In this document: positions 4,110 to 35,292 of the stretch, one piece after another | Position numbering within the stretch: position 1 is the stretch's first letter | How the letters are laid out: every line of letters starts with the position of its first letter | Origin: a phage | Sequence record: PZ386975.1 | Strand: one strand, 5' to 3' | Length of the DNA stretch: 64,000 nucleotides | Program-made: the position numbers and the translations under genes | The notes under the pieces: model-generated | Told to the model about the DNA's origin: nothing | The model's input: the letters and a program-made list of their open reading frames with translations, nothing else | Database searches by the model: none

Positions 4110-4162
4110 AAGTATATGATAAGAGGCTCCTACGGGAGCCTTTTTAATTTCTGGAGAAAACT

Positions 4163-4498
4163 ATGAAAATCAAAGAGATGAACATCAACGTTGTCTTAGA
4201 AGAACGTTGGGAGAACATTAAGAAGCCTGAAGATGGTAAAAAGTTCCTTAACAAAATTTTAGTAGCAGCTAAAGAAGAACTGACTGGGAAGATTGCAGCA
4301 GCAATCACAATAAAGGTTTGTGTAAAAGGTCTTCCACAACATCACCAGTTTGCTCTTGACGAGTTTAAAGAAAGCTTCTACAATCCAAATAAACAGATGC
4401 TTGAAAGTAACTTTGCAGTATCTACAAGTATCGTTCATGACAGAAGCTTTATCCTTTACAAAAACATGAGAGGTGAGTCATGCAAGCATATTGGATAG
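4163..4498 (+). CDS. hypothetical protein (111 aa)
   Basis: ORF with RBS after rho-independent terminator 4123-4146. Confidence 0.5.
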   Translation: MKIKEMNINVVLEERWENIKKPEDGKKFLNKILVAAKEELTGKIAAAITIKVCVKGLPQHHQFALDEFKESFYNPNKQMLESNFAVSTSIVHDRSFILYKNMRGESCKHIG

Positions 4499-4656
4499 AA
4501 ATTTTACTGTCACTTGGTAGTGTAGCAGTATTTGTTTACCTTCTTTGCAAGTACTATGCAGAGCACAAGAAGTGTGATTACTGCAACGGGGAAGGGTATA
4601 CAAGAGCAGGCTGTTGCCCTATTTGTGGCGGTTCTGGTAAAATGTTTAATAAGTAA
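4480..4656 (+). CDS. small membrane protein (58 aa) with DnaJ-type zinc finger (two CxxCxGxG motifs)
   Basis: ATG 4480 after AGAGGTGAG; hydrophobic N-terminal helix then CDYCNGEG and CPICGGSG; below the 60-aa cutoff of the ORF track. Confidence 0.45.
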   Translation: MQAYWIEILLSLGSVAVFVYLLCKYYAEHKKCDYCNGEGYTRAGCCPICGGSGKMFNK

Positions 4657-4684
4657 TTTAACAGTAAACTAAGAGGAAAGTATT

Positions 4685-7051
4685 ATGCGCATGGTAAACG
4701 ACCACGCAGAAGTGATTAAGAGTTCAACTTCTTTGGAGACATCTCAAGCACAGATTACAATGACACCTGAAATGTTCAGCCTTTTAAGTTCAGGTGTATA
4801 CACATTTAAAGAAAGGGCAGTGATTCGTGAACTGTCATGTAACGCAGTAGATGCTCAAAAAGAAGCTGGAAAAGAGAACATCCCATTCCATGTGCATTTA
4901 CCTACTCGATTTGAGCCTTACTTTGAAGTCCGTGACTTTGGAACTGGTTTAACCCATGACAAAGTAATGAGTTTGTATCTGAACTATGGGGCTTCTACGA
5001 AGAATGACTCCAATGATTACATTGGTGCAATGGGTATCGGCTCAAAATCCCCATTTGCAATTGCTCAGTCATTCACAGTATCTAGCTATGTTGATGGTGT
5101 TGTTAATAAGTACTCTGTTTACCTTGAGAATGGTATCCCTCAAGTAACTAAGCTTACTACCAACCCAACAAATGAACCCAATGGTTTAGCTGTACGTGTA
5201 GCAGTTGCTGACCATCGTATTTCAAAGTTCTTTGAAGAGGCTGGTCACGTATACTCATACTTTGCTGTAAAACCAGAAAGTAACGTTGTATATGATGATG
5301 TATTAGCAGATATGAATGTCATTGCCCGTGAAGAGGGTGTTTATGATGCTATGATTCATAAGCAAAGCTGGCGTTCTAGTGGCAACAGGACAGAGTTTAA
5401 TGTGGTGATGGGTAATATTGCCTACCCAGTGAACATGGAAGCATTACTTGGTGATGATTTCTTCAAAGTCTTGCCAGAGTTTTTCCGTAGGAGCGTAGAC
5501 CTTGTAAACATCTACATGCCTATTGGTTCAGTGGCTATTGCAGCTTCTCGTGAAGCATTGCAGATGAATGACACGACAAAAAATGTTATCATTGAGGCTA
5601 CTAAAAAGATAACTGAAGCCATTACAAAGGATGTTATCAAGAAAGTTAACAGCCAACCTACACTCATGGATGCTGCACAGGCTTATGCTGAGTTACGTTT
5701 GAACTCACGAGAGATGTTTAATGCTGTGTGTCCAAAGCTAGAGTGGGGAGGCGTTAAGCTTGATTCTCTGGAAGAAGAATTACTAAACATTCGTCGTGGG
5801 ATTATCTACGCAGAAGACGGCTCAGTCATTTATGAACGTGACGGTAAAGGTAATATCAAGGTTGATAGGAACGGGAACAATATCCCTAAAGTGGATTATC
5901 TTTATAATCCAGTTGCTTATGTCAAGTTCAACTCTTTAGAGAGTAAGATTCGTGCAACAGCACTTTCCTACACTCAAGAGGCAAGTATGTTCAATATCTT
6001 TGGTGCAATGCGTAAAAGCCAAATTGAACAGTTTTTGTTCGTGATTAATGACCGTCGTAATAAAAATGGCACTGAGAAGACTGTAGGCCGCAATCAGATT
6101 CTGCGTGGTGCATGTCGAGACTACGCTAACGAGTCAAGCCTGTTCCACAGATACAATGGTATTGTGTTTGTATTCTCGACTGAAAAAGAGTTAGATGATT
6201 TAATCAATCTGCATAAACTTGATAAAAGTTTGTTAAAGATTGTGAAGATGTCTGATAAGGAACACCATTATCAGCGTAAAGAAGCTGTGAGGGGTGTTGT
6301 AAAACTCTGGAAAGCTGTTCCATCAGAAACTAAAGCTTCATACACAGAGGTGTCAGAAGACCTAGATACAATTGAAGAACCCCAGCTTTATATCAAGGCA
6401 GTAGGCGACACAGTTGATGGTGAATGTTTTTGCTCATCCCCAGAAGATGTAGCTAAAACAATTGCTAATGTTATAGGAAAAACAGTCTATGTTTTCCGAA
6501 AAGCAAATTGGAAAAAGATACCAGAAGACTGGATTGAAGTAGATGAGAAGCTATTGAATGACAGCTTAACTGATGTTCACTGGATTAATCATAACAGGTA
6601 TATGACACGTATCTATATGAATGGTGTCCTTGACCTTACAAGTAGTTGGATTATTGCCAGAAACTTTACGTTTAATAACAAGAAGATTTCTCGCGGGTAT
6701 TGCTATTCACGAGATACAAACAAAACCATCTTCTTAGAAGGTAATGAGAATGCTGTTGAGGCAATGTTTGGTAAGATTCAGTATGTGGCTGCACCGTTTG
6801 CATACACTTACACTATCAGTGTTCTTCAGGATTTGAAGTCATGCCTTGACAATGATACAAAACTGTACAAAAAGATTAAGAAAGCGGGTGACCGCATGGT
6901 TATCAAACTGACAAACTACCTTTCAAAAAGAAAACAAGAAAACTTCTTGCTTTCCCATTTAGATTGGAATAAAGTGTCACCCATCGAAGTGAGTAAGTTC
7001 TTAGGCTTTGATGTGAAGTGTGTTCCAGAAGGGACTACAATTTACGATTAA
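4685..7051 (+). CDS. rIIA: rIIA-like protein with N-terminal GHKL (Bergerat-fold) ATPase domain
   Basis: N-box ELSCNAVDA, G1 box VRDFGTGL, G2 box GAMGIGSKSPF; 788 aa; followed by candidate rIIB. Confidence 0.6.
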   Translation: MRMVNDHAEVIKSSTSLETSQAQITMTPEMFSLLSSGVYTFKERAVIRELSCNAVDAQKEAGKENIPFHVHLPTRFEPYFEVRDFGTGLTHDKVMSLYLNYGASTKNDSNDYIGAMGIGSKSPFAIAQSFTVSSYVDGVVNKYSVYLENGIPQVTKLTTNPTNEPNGLAVRVAVADHRISKFFEEAGHVYSYFAVKPESNVVYDDVLADMNVIAREEGVYDAMIHKQSWRSSGNRTEFNVVMGNIAYPVNMEALLGDDFFKVLPEFFRRSVDLVNIYMPIGSVAIAASREALQMNDTTKNVIIEATKKITEAITKDVIKKVNSQPTLMDAAQAYAELRLNSREMFNAVCPKLEWGGVKLDSLEEELLNIRRGIIYAEDGSVIYERDGKGNIKVDRNGNNIPKVDYLYNPVAYVKFNSLESKIRATALSYTQEASMFNIFGAMRKSQIEQFLFVINDRRNKNGTEKTVGRNQILRGACRDYANESSLFHRYNGIVFVFSTEKELDDLINLHKLDKSLLKIVKMSDKEHHYQRKEAVRGVVKLWKAVPSETKASYTEVSEDLDTIEEPQLYIKAVGDTVDGECFCSSPEDVAKTIANVIGKTVYVFRKANWKKIPEDWIEVDEKLLNDSLTDVHWINHNRYMTRIYMNGVLDLTSSWIIARNFTFNNKKISRGYCYSRDTNKTIFLEGNENAVEAMFGKIQYVAAPFAYTYTISVLQDLKSCLDNDTKLYKKIKKAGDRMVIKLTNYLSKRKQENFLLSHLDWNKVSPIEVSKFLGFDVKCVPEGTTIYD

Positions 7052-7130: not shown

Positions 7131-8240
7131 ATGACTATTAAAACTAAAGCACAGATTGACGCAGAAATTTACAAACTGGTTAAAGAGGGTAAGCTGACTA
7201 AAACAGCTATTGCACAGAAATTTAACACCTCAACCCGTTCAGTCGGTCGTGCTGTAGAGCGTCATGAAGCAACCTTAAAAGGTAAGAAAAAGGTAGCTTC
7301 TAAACCAGCTACGAAGACTTTGAAGCAAGTTGCTAAATCAGTTAAAAAGAAAGCTGGAAAACCAGTTGAAAATGTTGTTAAAGAGACTGTACAAAAGGCT
7401 CCGGTAAATAAACTACACGAAGCTATGCAGAATGGTAACCAGATTGAGTATATGATTACTGGCGATTCTGTTATCATGACTTTCGGTGCAGATTCTGAAA
7501 TCGTTGAATCTACCCATCCGAACTACAAAGAAATCGTAATGGCTGTTGTATCCGGTGAGTATAAGAAAGCTTTCGAACTGATGAACATTCGTAAATCTAT
7601 CGAAAACTTCACTCAGGGTGCTATCACCATCAAAGGTGACAAGTTATTCTACGGTACTGTTGAGATGCGTTCTACTCTGGTTGACCGTATTCTTCACATG
7701 ATGAAGACTGGAGATAAAGGTTTTGAACGCCTTGTGATGTTCTTCGAAAAACTGATGGAAAACCCATCTAAAGACTCTGTAGAACAACTTTGGGGCTTTG
7801 TATCTCACCTTGATGTTGAAATTGATGAAGAAGGCTACATCATTGGTTGGAAGAAAGTCTCTACTCGTGAAGGCAAGCTGGTTGACTCCCACACCTACAA
7901 AGTACCTAATGATTTGGGTAACATTGTAGAAATGCCACGTTGGATGGTTGATAACAACCGTAACGTGACTTGCTCTCAAGGTCTTCATGTTGGTGCTTGG
8001 GACTATGTTCGTTGCTTCTCAGGTGATACAATCCTGAAGGTTCGTGTCCATCCACGAGATGTTGTATCTGTTCCAACTGATTACAACGATATGAAGATGC
8101 GTTCGTCTCGTTATGAAGTTGCAGCAATCGTTGATAATCAACGTAAAGTGCTGAAAGCATGGGATGGCAAGACTGAAGCTTTGCATGTCATCGTTGGCAC
8201 TGCTGGAGAACTTATCTCCCAACGTAAACGTGAAATCTAA
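7131..8240 (+). CDS. rIIB: putative rIIB-like protein (369 aa)
   Basis: size and position immediately after rIIA-like gene; no motif confirmed. Confidence 0.35.
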   Translation: MTIKTKAQIDAEIYKLVKEGKLTKTAIAQKFNTSTRSVGRAVERHEATLKGKKKVASKPATKTLKQVAKSVKKKAGKPVENVVKETVQKAPVNKLHEAMQNGNQIEYMITGDSVIMTFGADSEIVESTHPNYKEIVMAVVSGEYKKAFELMNIRKSIENFTQGAITIKGDKLFYGTVEMRSTLVDRILHMMKTGDKGFERLVMFFEKLMENPSKDSVEQLWGFVSHLDVEIDEEGYIIGWKKVSTREGKLVDSHTYKVPNDLGNIVEMPRWMVDNNRNVTCSQGLHVGAWDYVRCFSGDTILKVRVHPRDVVSVPTDYNDMKMRSSRYEVAAIVDNQRKVLKAWDGKTEALHVIVGTAGELISQRKREI

Positions 8241-25745: not shown

Positions 25746-26377
25746 TATGCCTCCCCTGCTGGGTTAACTGTAACTGTTGCTGCATTAGATGTTACAGAGC
25801 CACCTGCACCAGTAACTACACAGGTGTAGCTTCCTGCATCAGCAGTGGTTGCACCTTCTTTGGTGTAAGTTGCAGTAGTTGCATCGAGGATGTCTTCCTC
25901 ACCTTTCTTCCACTGGTAACCTGTCGCACCTGTTGCCGCAACATTCAGCGTTAAGGTCTCACCTTCATTAATTTCTTGATTGGTTGGCTGTTGAGTGATT
26001 GCTGGTGGCTTGATAGCATCCTTCAACTTAGCATTCAGCATTGAGAATGGTTTAACTCTTGCCAGCCATTCACAATAAACTGTATCAACGTCTTTACCAT
26101 TGATAATTGCATATTGTAAGTCCATGAAGAAGTCAGAAGTTCTCATTTGAGCACCAATGCTGTAAAGCAACTCATCACTAAATGGAACTTTGTAGTCTGG
26201 TTTGTAGTCAAACTCATCGACTTCTGCAATATCAGCTTCAGGCCAATATGAACTATAGGTAAGTGGTAAAATAACCTCTTGATATGTTCTAAAATCATAT
26301 CTCTTACCAGCCTTTACATTTGCAATGAAACCCTTCACAAACTCTTTGAAGTCTGGGTAAGTCTTTGCTTTAATCAT
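25745..26377 (-). CDS. hypothetical protein with C-terminal Ig-like domain
   Basis: C-terminal ...GYQWKKGEE...AGSYTCVVTG... Ig-like signature; N-terminus paralogous to 26374..26745. Confidence 0.55.
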   Translation of the reverse strand: MIKAKTYPDFKEFVKGFIANVKAGKRYDFRTYQEVILPLTYSSYWPEADIAEVDEFDYKPDYKVPFSDELLYSIGAQMRTSDFFMDLQYAIINGKDVDTVYCEWLARVKPFSMLNAKLKDAIKPPAITQQPTNQEINEGETLTLNVAATGATGYQWKKGEEDILDATTATYTKEGATTADAGSYTCVVTGAGGSVTSNAATVTVNPAGEA

Positions 26378-26745
26378 TTCTTTTTAGCCTCTAAATGTGC
26401 GTTTAGTCTAAAATAGCCTTTGTGATGCGGAGATACATCACCAACAACAATACCTTTAACCTTATAACCTTTACCAATTACATACTGGATATCCATAAGG
26501 AATCTTCCAAGACCAACAATATGGAACATTGGATATAATAGATTCTCAGAGTCTGGAATATTGATTTCGGGTTTGTAGGTGCGTTGTTCGGTTATTGGTG
26601 TAATATCTTCTTCAGGCCATTTACTGAGTCTCCATGTCAAAGGTGTTGGGATAACATCATTAAGGTTGTATCTTTCACCATTTTGCACGGAATTGATATA
26701 GGATTGTAGGAAGCAATAAAAGTCTTTTGCACTCTTAGCTTTCAT
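26374..26745 (-). CDS. hypothetical protein, paralog of the N-terminal domain of 25745..26377
   Basis: shared N-terminal pattern (MxKAKxxxDF...YxxxxG.RY...WPEEDI...YKPE...LLY...MDIQY). Confidence 0.5.
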   Translation of the reverse strand: MKAKSAKDFYCFLQSYINSVQNGERYNLNDVIPTPLTWRLSKWPEEDITPITEQRTYKPEINIPDSENLLYPMFHIVGLGRFLMDIQYVIGKGYKVKGIVVGDVSPHHKGYFRLNAHLEAKKK

Positions 26746-28002: not shown

Positions 28003-28374
28003 ATGAAAAACAGAACAAACAAAGGCCAGTTTAAAAAAGGCCAGTCTGGAAACCCATCTGGAAGACCAAAAGGCTCTCGTAACAAAAGCTCACTCGTAAA
28101 AGCTCAACTGACCATTGATAATTCTGCTGAGTTTGCTGCAAAGCTGTTTGAGGCGATTGTTACAAGGGATGCTGCTAAGCTTGCAGAGTTCGGGTTAAAC
28201 ACAGACGATGTAACCATCAAGAGTATGATTGAGGTCGGTAAAACTATCATGACTCACTCAGCAGGTGAGATGAAAGCAATTGCAGCAGACACTAAGAAGA
28301 CTCCTGATAATGGTGGTCAAACCCAGACAGATAACAAACCAACGTTCTCTGCTGTAGCGACTCTCAAAAAATAA
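28003..28374 (+). CDS. hypothetical protein with basic N-terminus (GNPSGRPKGSRNK motif), possibly nucleic-acid binding
   Basis: ORF with Lys/Arg-rich N-terminal region. Confidence 0.5.
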   Translation: MKNRTNKGQFKKGQSGNPSGRPKGSRNKSSLVKAQLTIDNSAEFAAKLFEAIVTRDAAKLAEFGLNTDDVTIKSMIEVGKTIMTHSAGEMKAIAADTKKTPDNGGQTQTDNKPTFSAVATLKK

Positions 28375-28455
28375 TTTTAAAAGGTGTTGACAGACTCTAC
28401 AAAGTTGCTCTAAAGTCTGTCACATCAAACAACAAATGAGAGAAGAGAGTAAAAT

Positions 28456-29871
28456 ATGAGCGAATTATTCAAACATGCGCACCTTCATGCAGGTCGAACT
28501 GAAAATGGTGCTGTAAACCATACTTCATCAATGTCTGCTCTTGTAGACTTTTACAAAGCTGCTGGTTCTAGCCGTAGCAATGTAGAAATCTTACCAGACT
28601 TGTTCTACAAAGCTTTGCATGAGGATGTTGATGTTGCAGTTCGTATTTTACTGCATATGCGAGATGTACGAGAAGGTATGGGTGAGCGTAAAGCTTTCCG
28701 AACTGTTTTACTTCAAGCGATTGAAGATAAGATTTTAGAGCCTACACAGGTTCTTCGCATTATGGATAAGATTGCAGAACTTGGTCGTTTTGATGACTTC
28801 AAAATCTTCGTAGGTACTCGTTTTGAGACAGATGCCTTCAAACATTTAGAAGCAGCATTACTAGACCCTGCAACAGCAGGTTTAGCAGCTAAGTGGTTGC
28901 CACGAGTAAAACCACGCCACAAACATTTTGTAAAACGTTTCTGTAAGTTTGCAAACTTAAGCGAGAAAGAGTACCGCACACTGTTATCTGCACTGTCTGA
29001 TACGGTTGAGCAAAAAATCTCTGCTAATGAGTTTGGTAAGATTGACTACAGCAAGATTCCTTCACTCGCTGCTGCACGTTACCAAAAACTCTTTAACCGT
29101 AAAGATGGAGAACGTTACAAAGCTTACATCGAATCACTCTCAAAGGGTGAGGCTAAGATTAACGCTGGTGCTGTTTACCCATACGATGTGATTAAGTCTA
29201 TCAAGCATGGTAATGCAGATGTTGCCAATGAGCAGTGGAAAGCACTACCAAACTGGATGGCAGAAGGTGAGAACATTCTGTGTATGACCGATGTTTCAAG
29301 CTCAATGTCTTGGGTGAATCTTGGTTCAATCACTGCCCTTGATATTGGTGTATCACTTGCCTTGTATGTAGCAGAACGCAATACTGGTTGTTTTAAGAAT
29401 GAGTTAATGGTTTACTCAACAAACCCTCACTTCATCGAACTGAGTGGTGATTTACGAAACCGTCATCGTCAGGTGATGCGTCATGTTGAATATGGCTCAA
29501 CTAACTTACAAGCAGCTTTTGACCGTATTCTTGAGATAGGTAAAAGAAACAACTTGACTCAGAAAGATATGCCAAGTAAGCTTATCATCTTCTCCGATAT
29601 GGAGTTCAATCAGGTTGATGGTGCTAACGGTCGTACAAACTTTGAAGCAATTCAGAGTAAGTACAAAAAAGCTGGATATGAGATGCCACAACTGGTATTC
29701 TGGTACTTAGCAAACCGTAATGGCACTTGCGAAGTATCTGTTAAGGATAACGGTGTAGCAATGGTATCTGGTTTCTCTCCAGCCACTTTAAAAGCTCTGC
29801 TTGGTGGTGAGAAGTTTGACCCAATCAGCGTAATGCTCAAAGCAGTAATGATTGACCGTTATATCTGGTAA
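28456..29871 (+). CDS. vWA-domain protein with helical N-terminal region (Ro60/TROVE-vWA-like architecture)
   Basis: MIDAS-like DxSxS motif (CMTDVSSSMS) at about aa 275; 471 aa; upstream of the tRNA/structured-RNA cluster. Confidence 0.5.
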   Translation: MSELFKHAHLHAGRTENGAVNHTSSMSALVDFYKAAGSSRSNVEILPDLFYKALHEDVDVAVRILLHMRDVREGMGERKAFRTVLLQAIEDKILEPTQVLRIMDKIAELGRFDDFKIFVGTRFETDAFKHLEAALLDPATAGLAAKWLPRVKPRHKHFVKRFCKFANLSEKEYRTLLSALSDTVEQKISANEFGKIDYSKIPSLAAARYQKLFNRKDGERYKAYIESLSKGEAKINAGAVYPYDVIKSIKHGNADVANEQWKALPNWMAEGENILCMTDVSSSMSWVNLGSITALDIGVSLALYVAERNTGCFKNELMVYSTNPHFIELSGDLRNRHRQVMRHVEYGSTNLQAAFDRILEIGKRNNLTQKDMPSKLIIFSDMEFNQVDGANGRTNFEAIQSKYKKAGYEMPQLVFWYLANRNGTCEVSVKDNGVAMVSGFSPATLKALLGGEKFDPISVMLKAVMIDRYIW

Positions 29872-29888: not shown

Positions 29889-29917
29889 ATTGACAATGTG
29901 TTTGATACCCTTTAATA
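29889..29917 (+). promoter_or_regulatory. near-consensus sigma70-like promoter (TTGACA-17-TAATAT) embedded in a palindrome AAAGGGTAT..ATACCCTTT
   Basis: -35 at 29889-29894, -10 at 29912-29917; second candidate with TTGACA at 29981. Confidence 0.5.
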
Positions 29918-30036
29918 TGTTCTACATAGAAACGAAATGAGAGCTTTTCTAAGATACTGAAAAATATTTTAAAAAAGTTCTTGACAACCACTAAAAAATA
30001 ATGTTAAAGTGGTTACATAGAGTTTGAAAAGTTTAT

Positions 30037-30113
30037 CTCTGTTTAGCTCAGCTTGGTAGAGCGTTCCGTTTGGGGCGGTAAGGCCGGAGGTTCAAGTCCT
30101 CCAACAGAGACCA
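30037..30113 (+). tRNA. tRNA-Pro (anticodon UGG)
   Basis: acceptor CTCTGTT/AACAGAG, T-arm GGAGGTTCAAGTCCTCC, encoded CCA. Confidence 0.6.
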
Positions 30114-30130
30114 AATTTAAAGGGGTTACT

Positions 30131-30487
30131 ATGAGATTTTTAAAAGAATGTCCAGTTCATGGTTTAACTGAACATAGCATTCATAAGAATGGTAACGCCG
30201 GTAATAGAGTAAATTGTCTAAAATGTTGTGCATTAAGGACAAAACTTAGAGAGGATGCCAATAGGGAGAAAGCATACAAGTTTTATGGCGATAGTTGCAA
30301 AATTTGTGGCTATAATAAATGTAAAAATGCTTTAGAATGGCATCACCTTAACCCAAACGAAAAAGAGAATACACCATCAAAAATTATGGGTGCATCTTGG
30401 GAAAAGGTTAAAAAAGAACTTGATAAATGTGTTTTGCTCTGTGCTAATTGCCACAGAGAGGTTCATAGTGGAATTACAACGGTTTAA
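30131..30487 (+). CDS. HNH endonuclease
   Basis: Cys-rich Zn motifs (CLKCC, CKICG) and WHHLNPNEK...CANCHREVH HNH core; start moved to ATG 30131 because the track ORF overlaps tRNA-Pro. Confidence 0.75.
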   Translation: MRFLKECPVHGLTEHSIHKNGNAGNRVNCLKCCALRTKLREDANREKAYKFYGDSCKICGYNKCKNALEWHHLNPNEKENTPSKIMGASWEKVKKELDKCVLLCANCHREVHSGITTV

Positions 30488-30488
30488 T

Positions 30489-30563
30489 GTCGTAGAAGGC
30501 AAATGGTTAGCCACCTGACCTTCAATCAGTTGCTCGCAGGTTCGAATCCTGTCTACGACACCA
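30489..30563 (+). tRNA. tRNA, anticodon uncertain (loop CCTTCAA, possibly UUC/Glu)
   Basis: acceptor GTCGTAG/CTACGAC, T-arm GCAGGTTCGAATCCTGT, CCA. Confidence 0.45.
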
Positions 30564-30567
30564 GTTT

Positions 30568-30646
30568 TGACAGAAGACCAATTACAGCAAACTTAATCTT
30601 ATTCATCTGAAGGTAAATCGGACAAAGAAGAGATTTGGTCTGGTCA
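30568..30646 (+). ncRNA. structured RNA element Y1: conserved bulged helix (outer 4 bp TGAC/GTCA, internal loop AGA opposite G, inner AGACCAA/TTGGTCT)
   Basis: inverted repeat with covarying outer helix; shares motif CAGAAGACC..TACAGCAA with three paralogs. Confidence 0.4.
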
Positions 30647-30655
30647 TTAAGAATT

Positions 30656-30731
30656 GCGGGTATAGAGAAAGGGCGTCTCACATGTCTCATTAGCATGGTA
30701 TCGGCAGGTTCGACTCCTGCACCCGCCTCCA
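30656..30731 (+). tRNA. tRNA with anticodon CAU (Met or Ile2)
   Basis: anticodon stem CATGT/GCATG with loop CTCATTA; T-arm GCAGGTTCGACTCCTGC; acceptor has one mismatch. Confidence 0.45.
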
Positions 30732-30734
30732 ATT

Positions 30735-30800
30735 TTGCAGAAGACCGTATTCAGCAACAAACTACTTTTTGCGGATAAAAGAAAAAACACGGTCTGGCAA
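30735..30800 (+). ncRNA. structured RNA element Y2 (outer TTGC/GCAA, inner AGACCGT/ACGGTCT)
   Basis: same bulged-helix architecture as Y1 with compensatory changes. Confidence 0.4.
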
Positions 30801-30808
30801 TGTATTAA

Positions 30809-30885
30809 GGTTAGGAAGCACATAAGGTATGTGCGGTCGCCTGTTAAGCGAATGGCACAGGGTTCGAATCCCTGACTAACCGCCA
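30809..30885 (+). tRNA. tRNA-Asn (GUU)
   Basis: anticodon loop CTGTTAA, T-arm CAGGGTTCGAATCCCTG, G73, CCA. Confidence 0.55.
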
Positions 30886-30954
30886 AATTTAGGAGAGAAG
30901 CGATTGCTCACCGATTTGTAAGGTGCAAGTCCTTAGCCTGAATAGAAATTAAAT

Positions 30955-31042
30955 GTGTCGTTATCCCGTAGATGGTAGCGGTGGGGACTGTAAATCCCTT
31001 GTCATTGAGACTCGGTAGGTTCGACTCCTACACGGCACACCA
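30955..31042 (+). tRNA. tRNA-Tyr (GUA), long variable arm
   Basis: anticodon arm GGGGACTGTAAATCCCT; 88 nt; acceptor GTGTCGT/ACGGCAC. Confidence 0.6.
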
Positions 31043-31047
31043 ATAAA

Positions 31048-31125
31048 GGTTATGTAGTTTAATTTGGTTAAAATACTCCCCTGTCACGGGAGATGATGAG
31101 GGTTCAAATCCCTTCGTAACCGCCA
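31048..31125 (+). tRNA. tRNA-Asp (GUC)
   Basis: anticodon stem CTCCC/GGGAG with loop CTGTCAC; CCA. Confidence 0.6.
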
Positions 31126-31151
31126 ATTTTGAGAGGGCTATTTAGCCCCTC

Positions 31152-31186
31152 CCTTAAAGGGTTCTTACGAGTATCCTTTAAAGGAG
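31152..31186 (+). repeat. conserved palindromic hairpin CCTTAAAGGGTTCTTACGAGTATCCTTTAAAGG
   Basis: related copies at 34182-34208 and 32003-32030. Confidence 0.5.
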
Positions 31187-31265
31187 CAGAAGACCAAATA
31201 CAGCAAGAACGTATGAAAATTTCAAGCCAATTTAATTTTGAAAAATTTAAAACTTGGTCTGGCTC
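31184..31265 (+). ncRNA. structured RNA element Y3 (outer GAGC/GCTC, inner AGACCAA/TTGGTCT)
   Basis: same bulged-helix architecture. Confidence 0.4.
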
Positions 31266-31272
31266 AACAAAT

Positions 31273-31409
31273 TTACAGAAGACCGTTTACAGCAAAACTT
31301 AAACAATCTATTTCTCGGTAAAGAAAAGGCGAAGGTTCGATTCCTTCACTCGGCAGATGTCGAGTTGGTGTAATGGTAGCACTTAAGATGATAAACAACG
31401 GTCTGGTAA
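31273..31409 (+). ncRNA. structured RNA element Y4 (outer TTAC/GTAA, inner AGACCGTT/AACGGTCT) enclosing a circularly permuted tRNA-like module; Y-RNA/YrlA-like candidate
   Basis: T-arm GAAGGTTCGATTCCTTC (31331-31347), then 3' acceptor strand ACTCGGC, 5-nt linker, 5' acceptor strand GTCGAGT and D-arm TGGTGTAATGGTAGCAC. Confidence 0.45.
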
Positions 31410-31553
31410 TTATCTTTGTAGATAAGTTATTAAGCTTACCTGTGAGTATGCGACCACAAAGGGTGAAAGGGTAAATTCTAGATTTAAACCCAAAAAGGCA
31501 CATCGCTACAGACCTTAAGCAAGTCTGGGTAGCTTATCTACAAAGATAATTTA
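31405..31553 (+). repeat. 19-bp perfect inverted repeat TAATTATCTTTGTAGATAAG / CTTATCTACAAAGATAATT flanking about 108 nt
   Basis: arms at about 31405-31425 and 31534-31553, between Y4 and tRNA-Lys. Confidence 0.55.
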
Positions 31554-31555
31554 AT

Positions 31556-31631
31556 GGAAGTGTAGCAGAATGGTGATGCGGCAGACTTTTAATCTGACAG
31601 GCGATGGGTTCGAATCCCTCCACTTCTACCA
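31556..31631 (+). tRNA. tRNA-Lys (UUU)
   Basis: anticodon loop CTTTTAA; acceptor GGAAGTG/CACTTCT; paralog of tRNA at 32785. Confidence 0.5.
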
Positions 31632-31635
31632 AAAT

Positions 31636-31712
31636 GGTTCAGTCGCAGATAAGGTAATTCAAGGGTCTCATAAGACCTATGAATGTGGGTTCGATTCCCA
31701 TCTGAACCTCCA
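31636..31712 (+). tRNA. tRNA with anticodon CAU (Met or Ile2)
   Basis: acceptor GGTTCAG/CTGAACC, loop CTCATAA, T-arm GTGGGTTCGATTCCCAT. Confidence 0.5.
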
Positions 31713-31714
31713 AT

Positions 31715-31789
31715 TGTGGGTTAGCATAAATGGTAATGCAAACGGCTGATAACCGTTAGAAGAGGGTTCGATACCCTCACCTACAACCA
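31715..31789 (+). tRNA. tRNA-Ile (GAU)
   Basis: D-stem GCAT/ATGC, anticodon stem AACGG/CCGTT with loop CTGATAA. Confidence 0.6.
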
Positions 31790-31804
31790 ATTTCAATAAA
31801 GTTG

Positions 31805-31833
31805 TTGACATTGAGATGTGACTACTTTATAGT
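31805..31833 (+). promoter_or_regulatory. sigma70-like promoter TTGACA-17-TATAGT inside the tRNA cluster
   Basis: -35 at 31805-31810, -10 at 31828-31833. Confidence 0.5.
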
Positions 31834-32036
31834 AACCTTAGTTTTCGTTGCGTAGCGTCTATTTTGCAAATTTAAAATAAATGCAAACGACAATGTTTTT
31901 CTGGCAGTAGCTTGATAGGCTAAACACCAGTGAGGTCTTCCAATCCCTCATCAAAGAATTTGGCGTACTAGCCCACGGTATGATTAATAAAGTGGGCATC
32001 TTTAAGGGCTTTCTAAGAGAGTCTTTAAAGATTAAT

Positions 32037-32113
32037 GCACCCTTAGTTCAATTGGATAGAGCAACGGTCTTCTAAATCGTTAGTTACAGGTTCGAATCCT
32101 GTAGGGTGTACCA
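32037..32113 (+). tRNA. tRNA-Arg (UCU)
   Basis: anticodon loop CTTCTAA, T-arm ACAGGTTCGAATCCTGT. Confidence 0.6.
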
Positions 32114-32256
32114 ATTTAGTTAGCAGAATACTTAGACGACCTAAGCGGGTCTTCCTGTAGGGAGGTGGTCTGTATCTCATGTTTTCCAGAACATGTAAAT
32201 AATCTGAGAAGGGGCTTTACAGTGTTGAGATAATACGGTAAGCTTCGAATTATAGT

Positions 32257-32339
32257 ATGGGACGATGTTAAGACTCTAAGGCATGAGCAACGGATTCCAA
32301 CACCGTTTCAAAGGGGTTCAACTCCTCCGTCCCATGCCA
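32257..32339 (+). tRNA. atypical tRNA (83 nt, enlarged D region), anticodon possibly CCA (Trp)
   Basis: acceptor ATGGGAC/GTCCCAT perfect; anticodon region AACGG-ATTCCAACA-CCGTT. Confidence 0.4.
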
Positions 32340-32352
32340 AAGTCTTATTAGG

Positions 32353-32442
32353 GGTAGGTAGCGGCTAATGGTAGCCAAACTGTCTTGAAAACAGTTGCCA
32401 CTGTAGAGATACGGTGAGGGTTCGACTCCTTTACTTACCGCC
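32353..32442 (+). tRNA. tRNA-Ser (UGA), long variable arm
   Basis: anticodon stem ACTGT/ACAGT with loop CTTGAAA; 90 nt. Confidence 0.55.
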
Positions 32443-32698
32443 TAATAAGATTTTAAAGCCAAGCTTCATTCGGATGTTGCTTTGGTATCCCTCGTGTATT
32501 GTCGTACACACAGATAAAGCACCTAGTAGGTGTCACGGAGAAGAGATAATATCAAGCTCTCCAAAGGTTCTAGTCACCGGATTAAACAAGACTATGCAAA
32601 GACCTTTTTAGGTCTTTTTAGAGGGCTTCTAAGGTTATTACAGCTTGTTGTGGAACCTTGTTGCTTAGGTTCTTAGAAGTTCTCTAAAAAGATTTAAT

Positions 32699-32777
32699 GG
32701 GAGATTGACGGCAACTTGGTAGACCTATCTCGCTTAGAACGAGATGCTTGAGGGTTCGAATCCCTTGTCTCCTACCA
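32699..32777 (+). tRNA. tRNA with anticodon UAG (Leu-type) but short variable arm
   Basis: anticodon stem TCTCG/CGAGA with loop CTTAGAA; T-arm GAGGGTTCGAATCCCTT. Confidence 0.45.
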
Positions 32778-32784
32778 AATTAAT

Positions 32785-32860
32785 GCAGGTGTAGCAAAAT
32801 GGTTATGCGGCTGACTCTTAATCAGTAAGACGATGGGTTCAATTCCCTCCACCTGTACCA
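32785..32860 (+). tRNA. tRNA-Lys (CUU)
   Basis: anticodon loop CTCTTAA; paralog of 31556. Confidence 0.5.
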
Positions 32861-32866
32861 GACATT

Positions 32867-32943
32867 GGGGATGTAGTTTACATGGTTAAAACATAAGTTT
32901 TGCAAACTTAAGTACAGGGTTCAATTCCCTGCTTCTCCACCAA
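32867..32943 (+). tRNA. tRNA-Ala (UGC)
   Basis: D-stem GTTT/AAAC, anticodon stem TAAGT/ACTTA with loop TTTGCAA. Confidence 0.55.
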
Positions 32944-32949
32944 TTAGTG

Positions 32950-33023
32950 CATCCATAGTTTAAACGGGAAAATTACAGTCTTCCAAACTGAGGTTGAGGG
33001 TTCGATTCCCTCTGGATGCTCCA
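32950..33023 (+). tRNA. tRNA-Gly (UCC)
   Basis: acceptor GCATCCA/TGGATGC perfect; loop CTTCCAA. Confidence 0.55.
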
Positions 33024-33029
33024 AACAAT

Positions 33030-33106
33030 GCTGCTTTCGTATAATTGGCTATTACACATCCCTTGTAAGGATGGAAATGCAGGTTCGAGTCCTGTGAGCA
33101 GCACCA
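33030..33106 (+). tRNA. tRNA-Thr (UGU)
   Basis: anticodon stem CATCC/GGATG with loop CTTGTAA. Confidence 0.6.
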
Positions 33107-33109
33107 ATT

Positions 33110-33170
33110 CAGAGGTCAAGTGAAAGACCGCTGGTGTCAACTGAAGACCGTAACAAATTCCACGGAGTTG
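33110..33170 (+). ncRNA. fifth, more divergent stem-loop element containing the GAAGACCGT motif
   Basis: outer inverted repeat AGAGGTC/GACCTCT enclosing ..CTGAAGACCGTAACAAA.. Confidence 0.3.
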
Positions 33171-33201
33171 AGTTAGCGGCACAACTTCAGACCTCTTTCA
33201 T

Positions 33202-33276
33202 ACTCGCTTAGTTTATATGGTAAAACACCACCCTTACAAGATGAAGAAAAAGGTTCAAGTTCTTTAGTGAGTACCA
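33202..33276 (+). tRNA. tRNA, anticodon uncertain (loop CTTACAA, possibly UAC/Val)
   Basis: acceptor ACTCGCT/AGTGAGT, D-stem GTTT/AAAC; weak anticodon stem. Confidence 0.4.
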
Positions 33277-33277
33277 T

Positions 33278-33355
33278 GTTCCAGTATCCCAATTGGCAGA
33301 GGATGCAAGCTCAAACCTTGTACTAGTGACGGTTCGAATCCGTCTTGGAACACCA
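33278..33355 (+). tRNA. tRNA with anticodon CAA (Leu-type) but short variable arm
   Basis: anticodon stem GCAAG/CTTGT with loop CTCAAAC; T-arm GACGGTTCGAATCCGTC. Confidence 0.45.
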
Positions 33356-33374
33356 ATTTTAAGAGGCTATTTAG

Positions 33375-33932
33375 ATGAGATACTTAAAGTATGCTTCATG
33401 GATTTTCTTAGCTTTGTTAGAGCCATTTGCAGCAATCTTAGCAGTTATCTTAGCACCTTTTGTAGTTCCATTCTACAGTGAGAAGAAAGGACACTTACCT
33501 TTCGGGTTCAGATGGATGGAGACATATGACAACCCAATTGATGGTGATGAAGGTCACGTTAAAAGATGGGCTAATATTAGATGGATTGGTAAGCTGGGTG
33601 TCTACATGCAGAGAGTTGGATGGCTCTGGAGAAACAAAGCTTATAATTTCTCTTACCATGTATTAGGAAGAGATGTAAAAGATGTTACTAAGTGGAAAGG
33701 TAATATCAACGTAAGTTCTGACCCTGAAGATAATCAGACTGGTTATCTCCTAATGTGGAACAGTAATGCTTGGGGATTATTCGCTTTTATTCCGTCAATT
33801 AAAATCTTTGGTAAACAGTTTTACTGGAGAATTTATGTTGGATGGAAACTAAAAAGTGTTGTCCCAGAAGAAAGAGCATTCTCAAGGGAAAGAGTTATGT
33901 TGGCATTCTTTATTCATCCGCTGAGAAAGTAA
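33375..33932 (+). CDS. hypothetical integral membrane protein (185 aa) embedded in the tRNA cluster
   Basis: RBS AAGAGG; N-terminal hydrophobic helices; Trp-rich. Confidence 0.55.
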   Translation: MRYLKYASWIFLALLEPFAAILAVILAPFVVPFYSEKKGHLPFGFRWMETYDNPIDGDEGHVKRWANIRWIGKLGVYMQRVGWLWRNKAYNFSYHVLGRDVKDVTKWKGNINVSSDPEDNQTGYLLMWNSNAWGLFAFIPSIKIFGKQFYWRIYVGWKLKSVVPEERAFSRERVMLAFFIHPLRK

Positions 33933-33940
33933 AGATTTAA

Positions 33941-34016
33941 AGGGGATTAGTTTACAAGGTTAAAACCTCGGTCTTTGAAATCGAAGAAGTTGGTTCAATT
34001 CCAACATCCCCCGCCA
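33941..34016 (+). tRNA. tRNA-Gln (UUG)
   Basis: anticodon loop CTTTGAA; weak 1-72 pair. Confidence 0.55.
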
Positions 34017-34018
34017 AT

Positions 34019-34096
34019 GCTCCATTACTCCAATTGGCAGAGAGGCCAGACTTAAAATCTGTGTTATGTATCGGTTCGAATCCGATATGGAGTACC
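34019..34096 (+). tRNA. tRNA with anticodon UAA (Leu-type) but short variable arm
   Basis: anticodon loop CTTAAAA; T-arm ATCGGTTCGAATCCGAT. Confidence 0.45.
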
Positions 34097-34101
34097 AATT
34101 T

Positions 34102-34177
34102 TAGCGGTATAGCATAACTGGCAATGCAACAGTCTCTGAAGCTGTCCTATTAAGGTTCAAATCCTTATGCCGCTGCC
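34102..34177 (+). tRNA. tRNA-Gln (CUG)
   Basis: D-stem GCAT/ATGC, anticodon stem ACAGT/GCTGT with loop CTCTGAA. Confidence 0.55.
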
Positions 34178-34209
34178 ACTTCTAAGGATTCTTACGAGAG
34201 TCCTTAAAT

Positions 34210-34285
34210 GTGGCCTTATCATAAATGGTAATGACCCATGCTGTGAACATGGTCTATACGGGTTCGACTCCCGTAGGTCACCCCA
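34210..34285 (+). tRNA. tRNA-His (GUG)
   Basis: anticodon stem CCATG/CATGG with loop CTGTGAA; discriminator C73. Confidence 0.6.
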
Positions 34286-34291
34286 ATTTAT

Positions 34292-34367
34292 AGTCCAAGT
34301 AGCTTATATGGTTAAAGCGCGTGTCTGAAAAACATGAGAAGAGGGTTCAAATCCCACTGGACTACCA
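34292..34367 (+). tRNA. tRNA-Phe (GAA)
   Basis: D-stem GCTT/AAGC, anticodon loop CTGAAAA; acceptor boundaries approximate. Confidence 0.5.
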
Positions 34368-34383
34368 ATTTCAAAGGTGCTTA

Positions 34384-35118
34384 ATGAAAGAGATGACAGA
34401 ACAAGGTAAGGAGATTTTTAATCTCTTAAAAACCGGTAAAGGGTTTTCTAACCCACTTATTACTGGTGCAGCAGTTCTCGGTGGAACCGTAGCTGCCTCT
34501 ACATCACTTGTAAGCTCCATTAGCTCTGTAACAGACCCTACAATGAAGGAGAAGCTTGTTGCTGCTGGACTTACAACAGTCCTTCTAAACAGCTTTACAA
34601 CAAGCCTGACAAGCACTACAGCAACTACTAAGACCCTAACAGACTATGGTCAAAAGTCTATTGATGAGTTTTCATCACGTATGCAGGTAGCAAAGGGGTA
34701 TTCCAATGTTATGGGTGCAGCAGGAGAACAAGTTGGTTGTACACCATTCAGTGGTATTATGGGTGTTGCTACAGAGTATGGTCAAAAAGCTATTGACATG
34801 ATGAACAGTACACTAGATAGTGTTAACGGTGTGTTAAGTGACTTACAAGACGCTATTGATAAGGGTCTTGCTACTGTTTCTGATTTAGCTAATCAGGCTG
34901 TTAGTAAGATTAATGAAGGTATCTCAAAGATTACAGCTTATGCAGATGAAGTTGTGCAGATGATTGAAGAAGAAGCTGCCCTTATTGCAGAGTACCTTAA
35001 AACGAATATCAATGGGTTCTTAGCAGGTATCTTACCAGACTGGTTTGATGATGCTTGTAAAACTGGTGTAATCGACACTATTGCAACACCAGAAATGAAG
35101 AACGCATTACAGAAATAA
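34384..35118 (+). CDS. hypothetical Ser/Thr/Ala-rich protein (244 aa)
   Basis: start moved to ATG 34384 (RBS AGGTG) because the track ORF start overlaps tRNA-Phe. Confidence 0.5.
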   Translation: MKEMTEQGKEIFNLLKTGKGFSNPLITGAAVLGGTVAASTSLVSSISSVTDPTMKEKLVAAGLTTVLLNSFTTSLTSTTATTKTLTDYGQKSIDEFSSRMQVAKGYSNVMGAAGEQVGCTPFSGIMGVATEYGQKAIDMMNSTLDSVNGVLSDLQDAIDKGLATVSDLANQAVSKINEGISKITAYADEVVQMIEEEAALIAEYLKTNINGFLAGILPDWFDDACKTGVIDTIATPEMKNALQK

Positions 35119-35119
35119 T

Positions 35120-35212
35120 GGAAGATTAACCCTAAAAGGTAAGGGAGCAGTTTGCTAAACTGCCAGTAGCTGAGAAATCGGTGTACCAGTTCAAGTCTGG
35201 TATCTTCCTCCA
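35120..35212 (+). tRNA. tRNA-Ser (GCU), long variable arm
   Basis: acceptor GGAAGAT/ATCTTCC, anticodon stem GCAGT/ACTGC with loop TTGCTAA; 93 nt. Confidence 0.6.
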
Positions 35213-35216
35213 ATTT

Positions 35217-35292
35217 GAATCCGTGACAGAAATGGATATGTGCCTGTCTGCAAAACAGGTTTATAAGGGTTCAAGTCCCTTCGGATTCTCCA
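35217..35292 (+). tRNA. tRNA-Cys (GCA)
   Basis: acceptor GAATCCG/CGGATTC perfect, anticodon stem CCTGT/ACAGG with loop CTGCAAA, U73, CCA. Confidence 0.65.

Follow-up and report, generated by a model that had tools for sequence, protein, structure and literature searches.

A divergent Ro60-like protein gene of a Felix O1-type phage and its linked family of small, candidate Y-RNA-like RNAs

Here, we describe a gene for a Ro60-like protein and a family of small RNA elements linked to it in a 64,000-nucleotide (nt) stretch of the DNA of a Felix O1-type myovirus (Felixounavirus; sequence record PZ386975.1; the whole stretch is hereafter called the window). The open reading frame (ORF) encodes 471 amino acids (aa) from ATG to stop (28456-29871, plus strand), belongs to PHROG 850 and is the ortholog of gp130 of Escherichia phage Bas63. 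Downstream of the gene, and on its strand, lie four RNA elements that share one closing module, a terminal helix followed by a single-stranded ACAGCAA-type heptamer. The linkage between gene and RNA module is general for the DUF2828 protein family and was observed in both search directions, from gene to RNA and from RNA to gene. We consider it probable that the ORF product is a Ro60-type ring protein with the four small RNAs as its dedicated Y-RNA-like partners, and that the particle acts in counter-defence or in the control of RNA decay.

The protein is predicted to be a divergent Ro60-type ring protein, in which an N-terminal TROVE-like alpha-helical repeat domain (residues ~1-265; 28456-29250, plus strand) is closed by a C-terminal von Willebrand factor A (vWA) domain (29263-29871, plus strand) with a MIDAS (metal-ion-dependent adhesion site). 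An AlphaFold2 model built from a 42-sequence alignment (predicted local distance difference test 86.7, predicted template modelling score 0.87) is almost wholly helical over residues 28-263 and adopts an alpha/beta vWA fold over residues 274-464, in agreement with the initial annotation, which had described a helical N-terminal two-thirds followed by a vWA-type region with a DVSSSMS motif. The top ten PDB matches of this model in Foldseek were all full-length Ro60 structures (Xenopus, human and Thermus phage phiLo; E ~1e-8, template modelling score 0.52-0.63), and the matches ranked below them were isolated vWA domains only. The proposed resemblance to Ro60/Rsr is borne out by this comparison, and a TROVE-like fold, on which the proposal had been staked, is present in the N-terminal region. 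The motif D279-V-S-S-S283-M-S is encoded in the ORF; its residues D279-x-S281-x-S283 (29290-29304) are joined by T349 and D381, and this complete MIDAS set is invariant in the 42 homologs, at identities down to 40%. Several basic and acidic motifs of the helical domain are likewise invariant in the alignment.

By sequence, the protein falls into DUF2828/DUF7788 and not into Pfam TROVE. Searching Pfam-A with hmmscan returned DUF7788 (PF25043; 1.9e-43, 148.8 bits versus a cut-off of 27.1) and DUF2828 (PF11443; 1e-29, 104.1 bits versus a cut-off of 29), and the profile of PHROG 850, 'RNA-binding protein', spans residues 1-471 (2e-183). The NCBIfam search gave no meaningful match. Homologs occur in 710 phage records, including phages of Vibrio, Campylobacter, Listeria, Staphylococcus, Enterococcus, Bacillus and Mycobacterium, under annotations that vary from 'RNA-binding protein', 'Ro-like RNA binding protein' and 'putative ribonucleoprotein' to 'vWFA protein' and 'DUF2828'. 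The protein of Bas63, bas63_0130 (gp130, MZ501086), is 98% identical and of equal length.

The four RNA elements are embedded in an array of 25 co-directional tRNAs (30037-35292, plus strand; 24 ARAGORN calls and one tRNA found by Rfam only), which is context and lies outside the proposed particle. They begin 697 nt after the stop codon of the gene and span 0.7-1.5 kb downstream of it. The initial annotation had noted four Y-RNA-like elements 0.7 kb from the gene, and these four repeats are indeed there; they do not make up a block of their own, as the leading tRNAs of the array are interspersed among them. Exact copies of the motif AGAAGACC-N5-CAGCAA start at 30572, 30739, 31188 and 31277, always on the plus strand. 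With up to two mismatches allowed, this pattern has five matches in the window (the four elements and one two-mismatch site at 6075), a number reached by none of 100 shuffles. Element 1 (30568-30646) is located between the Rfam-only tRNA (30489-30560, plus strand; 55.4 bits, missed by ARAGORN, and tRNA-Glu by annotation in close relatives) and tRNA-Met, and element 2 (30735-30800), which has the variant UUCAGCAA, between tRNA-Met and tRNA-Asn. Element 3 occupies 31184-31265. These three plus-strand elements are short (66-82 nt), and element 4 (31273-31409, plus strand; 137 nt) is a long form with a permuted tRNA-like insert.

The closing architecture is identical in all four predicted folds. 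A 4-bp outer helix, which covaries between the copies (UGAC/GUCA, UUGC/GCAA, GAGC/GCUC, UUAC/GUAA), encloses a 5' AGA bulge and then a 7-bp helix, AGACCNN/NNGGUCU, in which NN covaries and whose 3' side is followed by a single bulged G; the single-stranded (U)UACAGCAA comes directly after the 5' strand in every element. Element 1, with its succession of outer helix, AGA bulge, 7-bp helix and G bulge, is conserved across Felixounavirus genomes, and the outer helix of element 2 covaries among relatives (UUGC/GCAA versus UUAC/GUAA). Felixounavirus relatives keep the module and let the interiors drift, and the hairpin of element 4 shows compensatory changes. Individual RNAfold z-scores are modest (-1.4 to -2.8).

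The same module accompanies the gene in very distant phages. We analyzed 68 loci with homologs of less than 70% identity to the window protein, which comprise IMG/VR loci (39-47%) and three GenBank phages (~34-46%). The exact Felixounavirus motif (AGACC...CAGCAA) was tried as a general signature and rejected, as it is not conserved in the distant loci, and the descriptor was widened to a stem followed by NCAGCAA; in its strict form it demands a stem of 7 bp or more and, after a gap of no more than 3 nt, [ACU]CAGCAA. Within 500 nt of the gene and on the gene's strand, 18 such elements were found upstream and 33 downstream, as opposed to none on either side on the opposite strand. At least one nearby element was present on the gene's strand in 42 of the 68 loci versus four on the opposite strand. 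The linkage of the type known for Y RNAs, which had been proposed for the window locus, is real and holds generally in the family. Inspection by eye added three module copies directly after the Ro-like gene of Mycobacterium phage Miley16, one of them with a T-arm and D-arm insert, and two copies directly before the gene of Campylobacter phage F365; in Listeria Pecentumvirus, three copies lie directly upstream of the gene.

Since pairing was a criterion of selection, only covariation counts as evidence for the helix, and all seven pairs of the 7-bp helix show compensatory changes, with an invariant heptamer. Features outside the descriptor are conserved as well, namely a U before the heptamer (51/57), a G after the helix (49/57) and the AG start, and the phage consensus reads aAa-AGGaUgC-UU-ACAGCAA...GcAuCCU-G-a/u, with a short class of 47-64 nt. 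A covariance model, R1, was built from 26 short elements of distant loci only and contains no Felixounavirus sequence. Run over both strands of the 64-kb window, it returned elements 2, 1 and 3 as its top three matches (30.3 bits, E 6e-5; 29.5 bits, E 1e-4; 24.0 bits, E 2e-3).

In the opposite direction, IMG/VR was scanned with the pattern AAAGG-N4-TTACAGCAA-N20-50-CCTG, which returned 80 loci. The stem can form in 51 of these, and a DUF2828 gene lies in the examined flank of 29 of the 51, usually 80-800 nt away; element and gene are co-stranded in 30 of 31 pairs. Among the controls, only two of 29 stem-less matches and none of 14 off-register matches (N5 spacing) had a DUF2828 gene; the 14 off-register matches, all stem-less, are probably chance occurrences. 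Clustering of 755 neighbouring ORFs from the 68 loci did not reveal a conserved protein partner, as no family occurred in more than 14 loci and none of the families was RNA-metabolic, which leaves the RNA module as the only constant companion of the gene. Adjacency to tRNAs was considered as the true linkage and rejected, with tRNAs within 4 kb on the same strand in only ~17 of 60 other loci.

Long elements such as element 4 share their internal design with the YrlA class of bacterial Y RNAs (RF02553, gathering threshold 69 bits). In element 4, the closing stem surrounds a T-arm (31331-31347; GAAGG-UUCGAUU-CCUUC), an acceptor-like hairpin (31348-31365) and a D-arm-like stem-loop (31367-31383); YrlA is defined by this permuted order. 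When 11 long elements from the window and from distant phages were analyzed with RNAalifold, the closing stem, the T-arm and the hairpin were predicted, with compensatory changes at 16 of 19 pairs. None of the Rfam 15 families reaches its gathering score on the elements, and the YrlA model has no match on elements 1-4; its sole window match (19.6 bits) lies over tandem tRNA-His/Phe. Long elements of other phages matched the model below threshold (38.2, 35.8 and 26.7 bits), the best of them with E 7e-7 in a local search of 561 nt and E 7.4e-5 in a search of 60.7 kb; this match rests on the T-arm, stem and D-arm, and the closing region does not fit. The Ro-binding motif GNCGAA(N)G is absent from all four elements and from 57 elements of other phages, which have (U)UACAGCAA in its place. 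Some long elements (locus L076, 6328-6428, and locus L079, 6191-6315) carry a tRNA-like insert in the normal order, with the D-arm before the T-arm, and the closing module seems able to carry different cargo domains.

Likeness and difference are both evident when the window system is placed beside established Ro60/Rsr systems with Y RNAs (Xenopus, 1yvp; Deinococcus radiodurans, 2nvo; Salmonella Typhimurium rsr-yrlBA). The combination of a helical-repeat ring with a vWA/MIDAS domain is shared, and so are adjacent, co-directional genes for the partner RNAs. Another parallel is the combination seen in YrlA and YrlB, in which a single long RNA, whose T-arm, stem-loop and D-arm make up a tRNA mimic, is accompanied by shorter RNAs that lack the mimic (PMC4201824). 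In contrast, the window protein is of the DUF2828/DUF7788 type and has 471 aa rather than ~500-540, and the GNCGAAG/bulged-helix site of Y RNAs is replaced by a helix followed by the single-stranded UACAGCAA.

A second likeness, to the Class I RNAs of Dictyostelium, emerged from the Rfam search. The Class I model (RF01414, gathering score 41.5 bits) matched window elements with 21.4, 19.7 and 13.0 bits, all below threshold, and elements of other phages with 24.7, 22.7 and 22.6 bits (locus L044, 3795-3844; locus L080, 5536-5588; locus L025, 3951-3986). Each of the six matches found has exactly the position and the strand of an ACAGCAA element. The length of Class I RNAs is 42-65 nt; they start with AAG and end with CUGU, whose C pairs with the 5' G, in a covarying 6-bp terminal stem; the 11-nt motif CCUUACAGCAA adjoins the 5' strand and the interior is variable (PMC7919456). 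The phage elements are alike in size, in the (A)AG start, the covarying terminal helix of 6-7 bp, the position of the motif immediately 3' of the 5' strand, the variable, A-rich interior and the CUG(U) end. At the 11-mer, elements 1 and 4 read UUACAGCAA (9/11), element 3 reads AUACAGCAA (8/11) and element 2 has its variant UUCAGCAA; in a joint alignment, real Class I sequences match the phage elements column for column over the 5' half. Class I RNAs differ in being transcribed from dispersed eukaryotic genes of RNA polymerase III type with a DUSE promoter, in being reported as unique to Dictyostelia, and in having an RNA recognition motif protein, CIBP/Rnp1A, as known direct binder.

On IMG/VR contigs that are binned as giant-virus metagenome-assembled genomes (MAGs), short elements that have the CUGU end and match the CCUUACAGCAA 11-mer exactly are arrayed in tandem (L128, 5691-6031; L129, 3809-4046; L130, 9275-9326), with R1 scores of 35.8 and 31.1 bits. 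Contig L130 also encodes a 593-aa, eukaryote-style DUF2828/DUF7788 protein (3001-4782), 5 kb from the elements; a sequence search from this giant-virus-type homolog returned metagenome proteins only. Three related giant-virus-type DUF2828 loci (L187-L189) have no element within 6 kb, and adjacency of gene and RNA therefore fails in that clade. A pull-down with DdR-21, a Class I RNA, recovered CIBP/Rnp1A, GuaB, NdkC and the uncharacterised protein DDB_G0281243, for which publications on Class I RNAs and their supplements give no domain information. The resemblance between phage elements and Class I RNAs is demonstrated; as a hypothesis, it may reflect homology or a common protein partner. Only tentatively, and as a possibility on which we would not rely, do we raise the broader proposal of a distinct and ancient Ro60-like particle, made of DUF2828/DUF7788 proteins with ACAGCAA-module RNAs, that would exist in parallel to canonical Ro60/Y RNA in eukaryotes, in giant-virus-type MAGs and in tailed phages with many different hosts. 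Class I RNAs would then be its eukaryotic members and a DUF2828-type protein their missing partner, with DDB_G0281243 as one candidate.

Parts of the window system have been reported before. The Bas63 study (PhageMaP preprint) described gp130 as structurally Ro60-like and located upstream of tRNAs, and remarked that 'some tRNA genes are possibly Y RNAs' (PMC11482910). In Bas63 (Escherichia phage JohannRWettstein, MZ501086), gp130 is located directly upstream of tRNA-Pro and is followed by the same four elements. The study did not identify these, and where elements 3 and 4 lie, the Bas63 record has two small hypothetical coding sequences on the minus strand, bas63_0137 and bas63_0138 (L085, 16749-17023). 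Their counterparts in the window are small ORFs at 31129-31503 that overlap both elements, and such minus-strand annotations are probably spurious calls over non-coding RNA genes.

Canonical TROVE-type Ro60 with YrlA-type RNAs has been reported in 22 phages (PMC4201824). For Thermus phage phiLo, the structure of Ro60 has been solved, and the protein binds two adjacent Yrl RNAs with a CGAA motif and attenuates PNPase (PMC12135203); the phiLo system (with Yrl1 and Yrl2; 9l5y, 9kop) is unlike the one described here in its annotated TROVE protein, its CGAA motif and an identity of ~14-16% to the window protein. Closer to the latter is CKA15_055 of Listeria phage CKA15 (Pecentumvirus), a homolog with ~29% identity that was detected in purified virions; its best HHpred match was Rsr, and highly transcribed non-coding regions upstream of the gene were suggested to be Y RNAs (PMC12282133). 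In a 97%-identical phage, the homologous gene is directly preceded by three ACAGCAA elements. The one highly transcribed region of CKA15 with published coordinates (26,236-26,727) maps ~0.7-1.1 kb further upstream than these three elements and so does not establish the expression of the elements themselves. In Listeria phage vB_Liva_VAfA18 (L086, 2372-3013, 3620-3885 and 6700-8019), a ~640-nt non-coding region upstream of the elements corresponds to this transcribed region of CKA15, and a gene annotated as 'tRNA splicing ligase' (RtcB-like) and a NADAR gene are found downstream. In view of the reports on Bas63, phiLo, CKA15 and the 22 phages, the identification of the protein is already known and a Ro60-like gene beside a tRNA cluster is not new. 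No account of this RNA family came up in a literature search for DUF2828, PF11443 and ACAGCAA in connection with Ro60, and the RNA partners as a distinct and widespread family, together with their likeness to Class I RNAs, appear to be new.

In the mechanism that we propose, the elements would be transcribed together with the tRNA array from host-type promoters. Promoter candidates at the locus are a sigma-70-like site 40 nt 5' of the ORF (28387-28416, plus strand; TTGACA-18-TAAAGT, 10/12 consensus matches) and two such sites that head the array of tRNAs and small RNAs (29890-29918 and 29981-30010, plus strand; 10/12 each). As elements 1 and 2 are only 4-9 nt from neighbouring tRNA ends, we infer that the elements are cut out by the tRNA-processing enzymes. 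The protein would bind the shared module, that is the terminal helix AG...CU-G and then the single-stranded (U)UACAGCAA; the three short RNAs would be minimal ligands, and the long RNA would add a tRNA mimic of YrlA type, a possible docking site for a host enzyme that binds tRNA or degrades RNA. Given the reports that gp130 neutralises the defence protein Ppl and that phiLo Ro60 with its Y-like RNAs damps PNPase, the particle would most likely shield RNA from, or divert, a host nuclease or defence activity during infection. PHP-domain proteins include the Escherichia coli 5'-3' exoribonuclease RNase AM, and an RNA-directed activity of Ppl is therefore conceivable. Ppl combines an ATPase with a PHP phosphoesterase domain, and the authors of the Bas63 study proposed that it degrades DNA; deletion of gp130 cripples Bas63 on a host with this defence (PMC11482910).

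Several results weigh against a Ro60-type particle with dedicated RNAs. Of the profile checks suggested at the outset, the one for TROVE failed, as Pfam TROVE (PF05731) had no match in the Pfam-A search up to E 1, and the one for vWA gave a weak VWA_2 match. A phmmer search of all PDB sequences returned nothing significant (best E 0.08, a uridine kinase), and the 42-sequence profile reached Ro60 over the MIDAS segment only, at a non-significant E of 0.14, so that the relationship to Ro60 is visible by structure comparison only. The YrlA and Class I models stay under their gathering scores on every window element. The strict descriptor found no element in 26 of the 68 loci, and in Vibrio phage phi-ST2 a strict 7-bp scan found none beside the gene, whose distance to the tRNA array is ~5.5 kb; a looser 6-bp scan gave a single weak candidate, which directly precedes the gene. 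The putative promoters are no more than consensus matches, and the total of sigma-70-like sites in the region is not above shuffle expectation. Finally, T7 is rescued on Ppl by gp130 alone, whether it is supplied on a plasmid or within the T7 genome (PMC11482910), which makes the phage RNAs unnecessary for this effect unless RNAs of the host take their place.

This last result is central to the chief rival, in which the protein is an anti-defence factor that acts without RNA, its vWA/MIDAS face inhibiting Ppl or another host protein directly, and the RNAs are separate and no ligands. T7 regained plaquing on Ppl in the absence of any Felixounavirus RNA (PMC11482910), the MIDAS is a classic protein-ligand site, with midasin and integrin among the structural matches, and its role in Ro60 has been stated as unclear (PMC12135203). 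We nevertheless judge this explanation unlikely, since it accounts neither for the retention of the whole Ro60 ring nor for the presence of the same-strand module beside the gene in phages of Enterobacteria, Campylobacter, Listeria and Mycobacterium and in dozens of uncultured phages.

Less probable still is a platform for RNA repair or quality control that presents damaged tRNAs of phage or host to a ligase such as RtcB or to trimming enzymes, a role that has been proposed for rsr-yrlBA-rtcBA operons, and guards the phage tRNAs against anticodon nucleases. The position of the gene next to 25 tRNAs would suit such a role, as would the same-strand tRNAs within 4 kb in ~17 of 60 other loci and the Listeria phage homolog, which lies beside tRNAs and 1.2 kb upstream of the annotated 'tRNA splicing ligase' (RtcB-like) gene; phage ROT/TROVE proteins have been discussed as RNA-repair platforms (PMC7824862). 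Most loci, however, have no tRNA within 4 kb, no ligase or kinase is a conserved neighbour in the 68 loci, and no ligase gene is present among the ORFs examined around the window locus, the rest of the window not having been searched for one. Moreover, the sole measured phenotype is counter-defence against a PHP/ATPase protein. That the elements are no functional RNAs, but remains of decayed tRNAs, processing spacers or signals for the transcription of the array, is hardly credible: their position between tRNAs, their modest z-scores and the tRNA-derived arms of element 4 would allow it, but the module stands beside the gene in loci without a nearby tRNA, its helix covaries around an invariant heptamer, the independent model R1 picks out the window elements specifically, and chance occurrences of the motif lack both stem and gene.

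Over the 3 kb around the gene, identity to Salmonella phage Meda, Escherichia phage JH2 and ~240 further records is 96-97%. The gene directly upstream (28003-28374) encodes a 123-aa DUF5681 protein (Pfam, 2e-14). Between tRNA-Pro and the next tRNA lies an HNH endonuclease ORF (30131-30487) with the appearance of a mobile homing-endonuclease insertion. In many close relatives, the region is matched in two pieces that cover only 86% of the query, and in several of these no HNH gene is annotated at this place, which would fit a missing HNH insert.

The 143 nt right after element 4 (31413-31555) have a multibranch fold that a 19-bp helix closes (-43.1 kcal/mol, z -5.0; none of 200 shuffles equally stable). 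This stretch has no ACAGCAA motif and no Rfam match, and it may be another structured RNA within the array. A tRNA-like sequence at 32257-32335, with an 8-bp acceptor-type helix, a T-arm-like hairpin GGGGUUCAACUCC and a 3' end ...CCCAUGCCA, was called neither by ARAGORN nor by the Rfam tRNA model; it may represent a further tRNA mimic or a tRNA that has degenerated. Weak, sub-threshold matches to permuted transfer-messenger RNA (tmRNA; RF04321, 32.5 bits, E 1e-3) and to tmRNA (16 bits) fall in 31732-32036 and follow the region's best promoter-like site (31805-31833, 11/12 matches). Among the other loci with a DUF2828 gene, that of the uncultured phage L080 also has a tmRNA gene (7710-8199, 87 bits), and locus L076 encodes a tRNA with a CUA (amber suppressor-type) anticodon (6919-6994).

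Earlier work on Felix O1 and Listeria phages could only guess at Y RNAs, as 'some tRNAs' or 'abundant transcripts'. The present analysis adds candidate ligands with base-level coordinates and a defined candidate recognition module, the helix AG...CU-G followed by the single-stranded UACAGCAA, which travels with the gene across very distant phages. The gp130/Ppl system of Bas63 thereby becomes testable: it can be asked whether physiological inhibition is due to the particle or to the protein by itself, and what is recruited by the tRNA-mimic RNA. If the likeness to Class I RNAs reflects shared ancestry or a shared partner, it would provide a biochemical handle on an abundant class of RNAs whose mode of action has gone unexplained for two decades, and Ro60-type particles would have at least two ancient flavours of RNA recognition.

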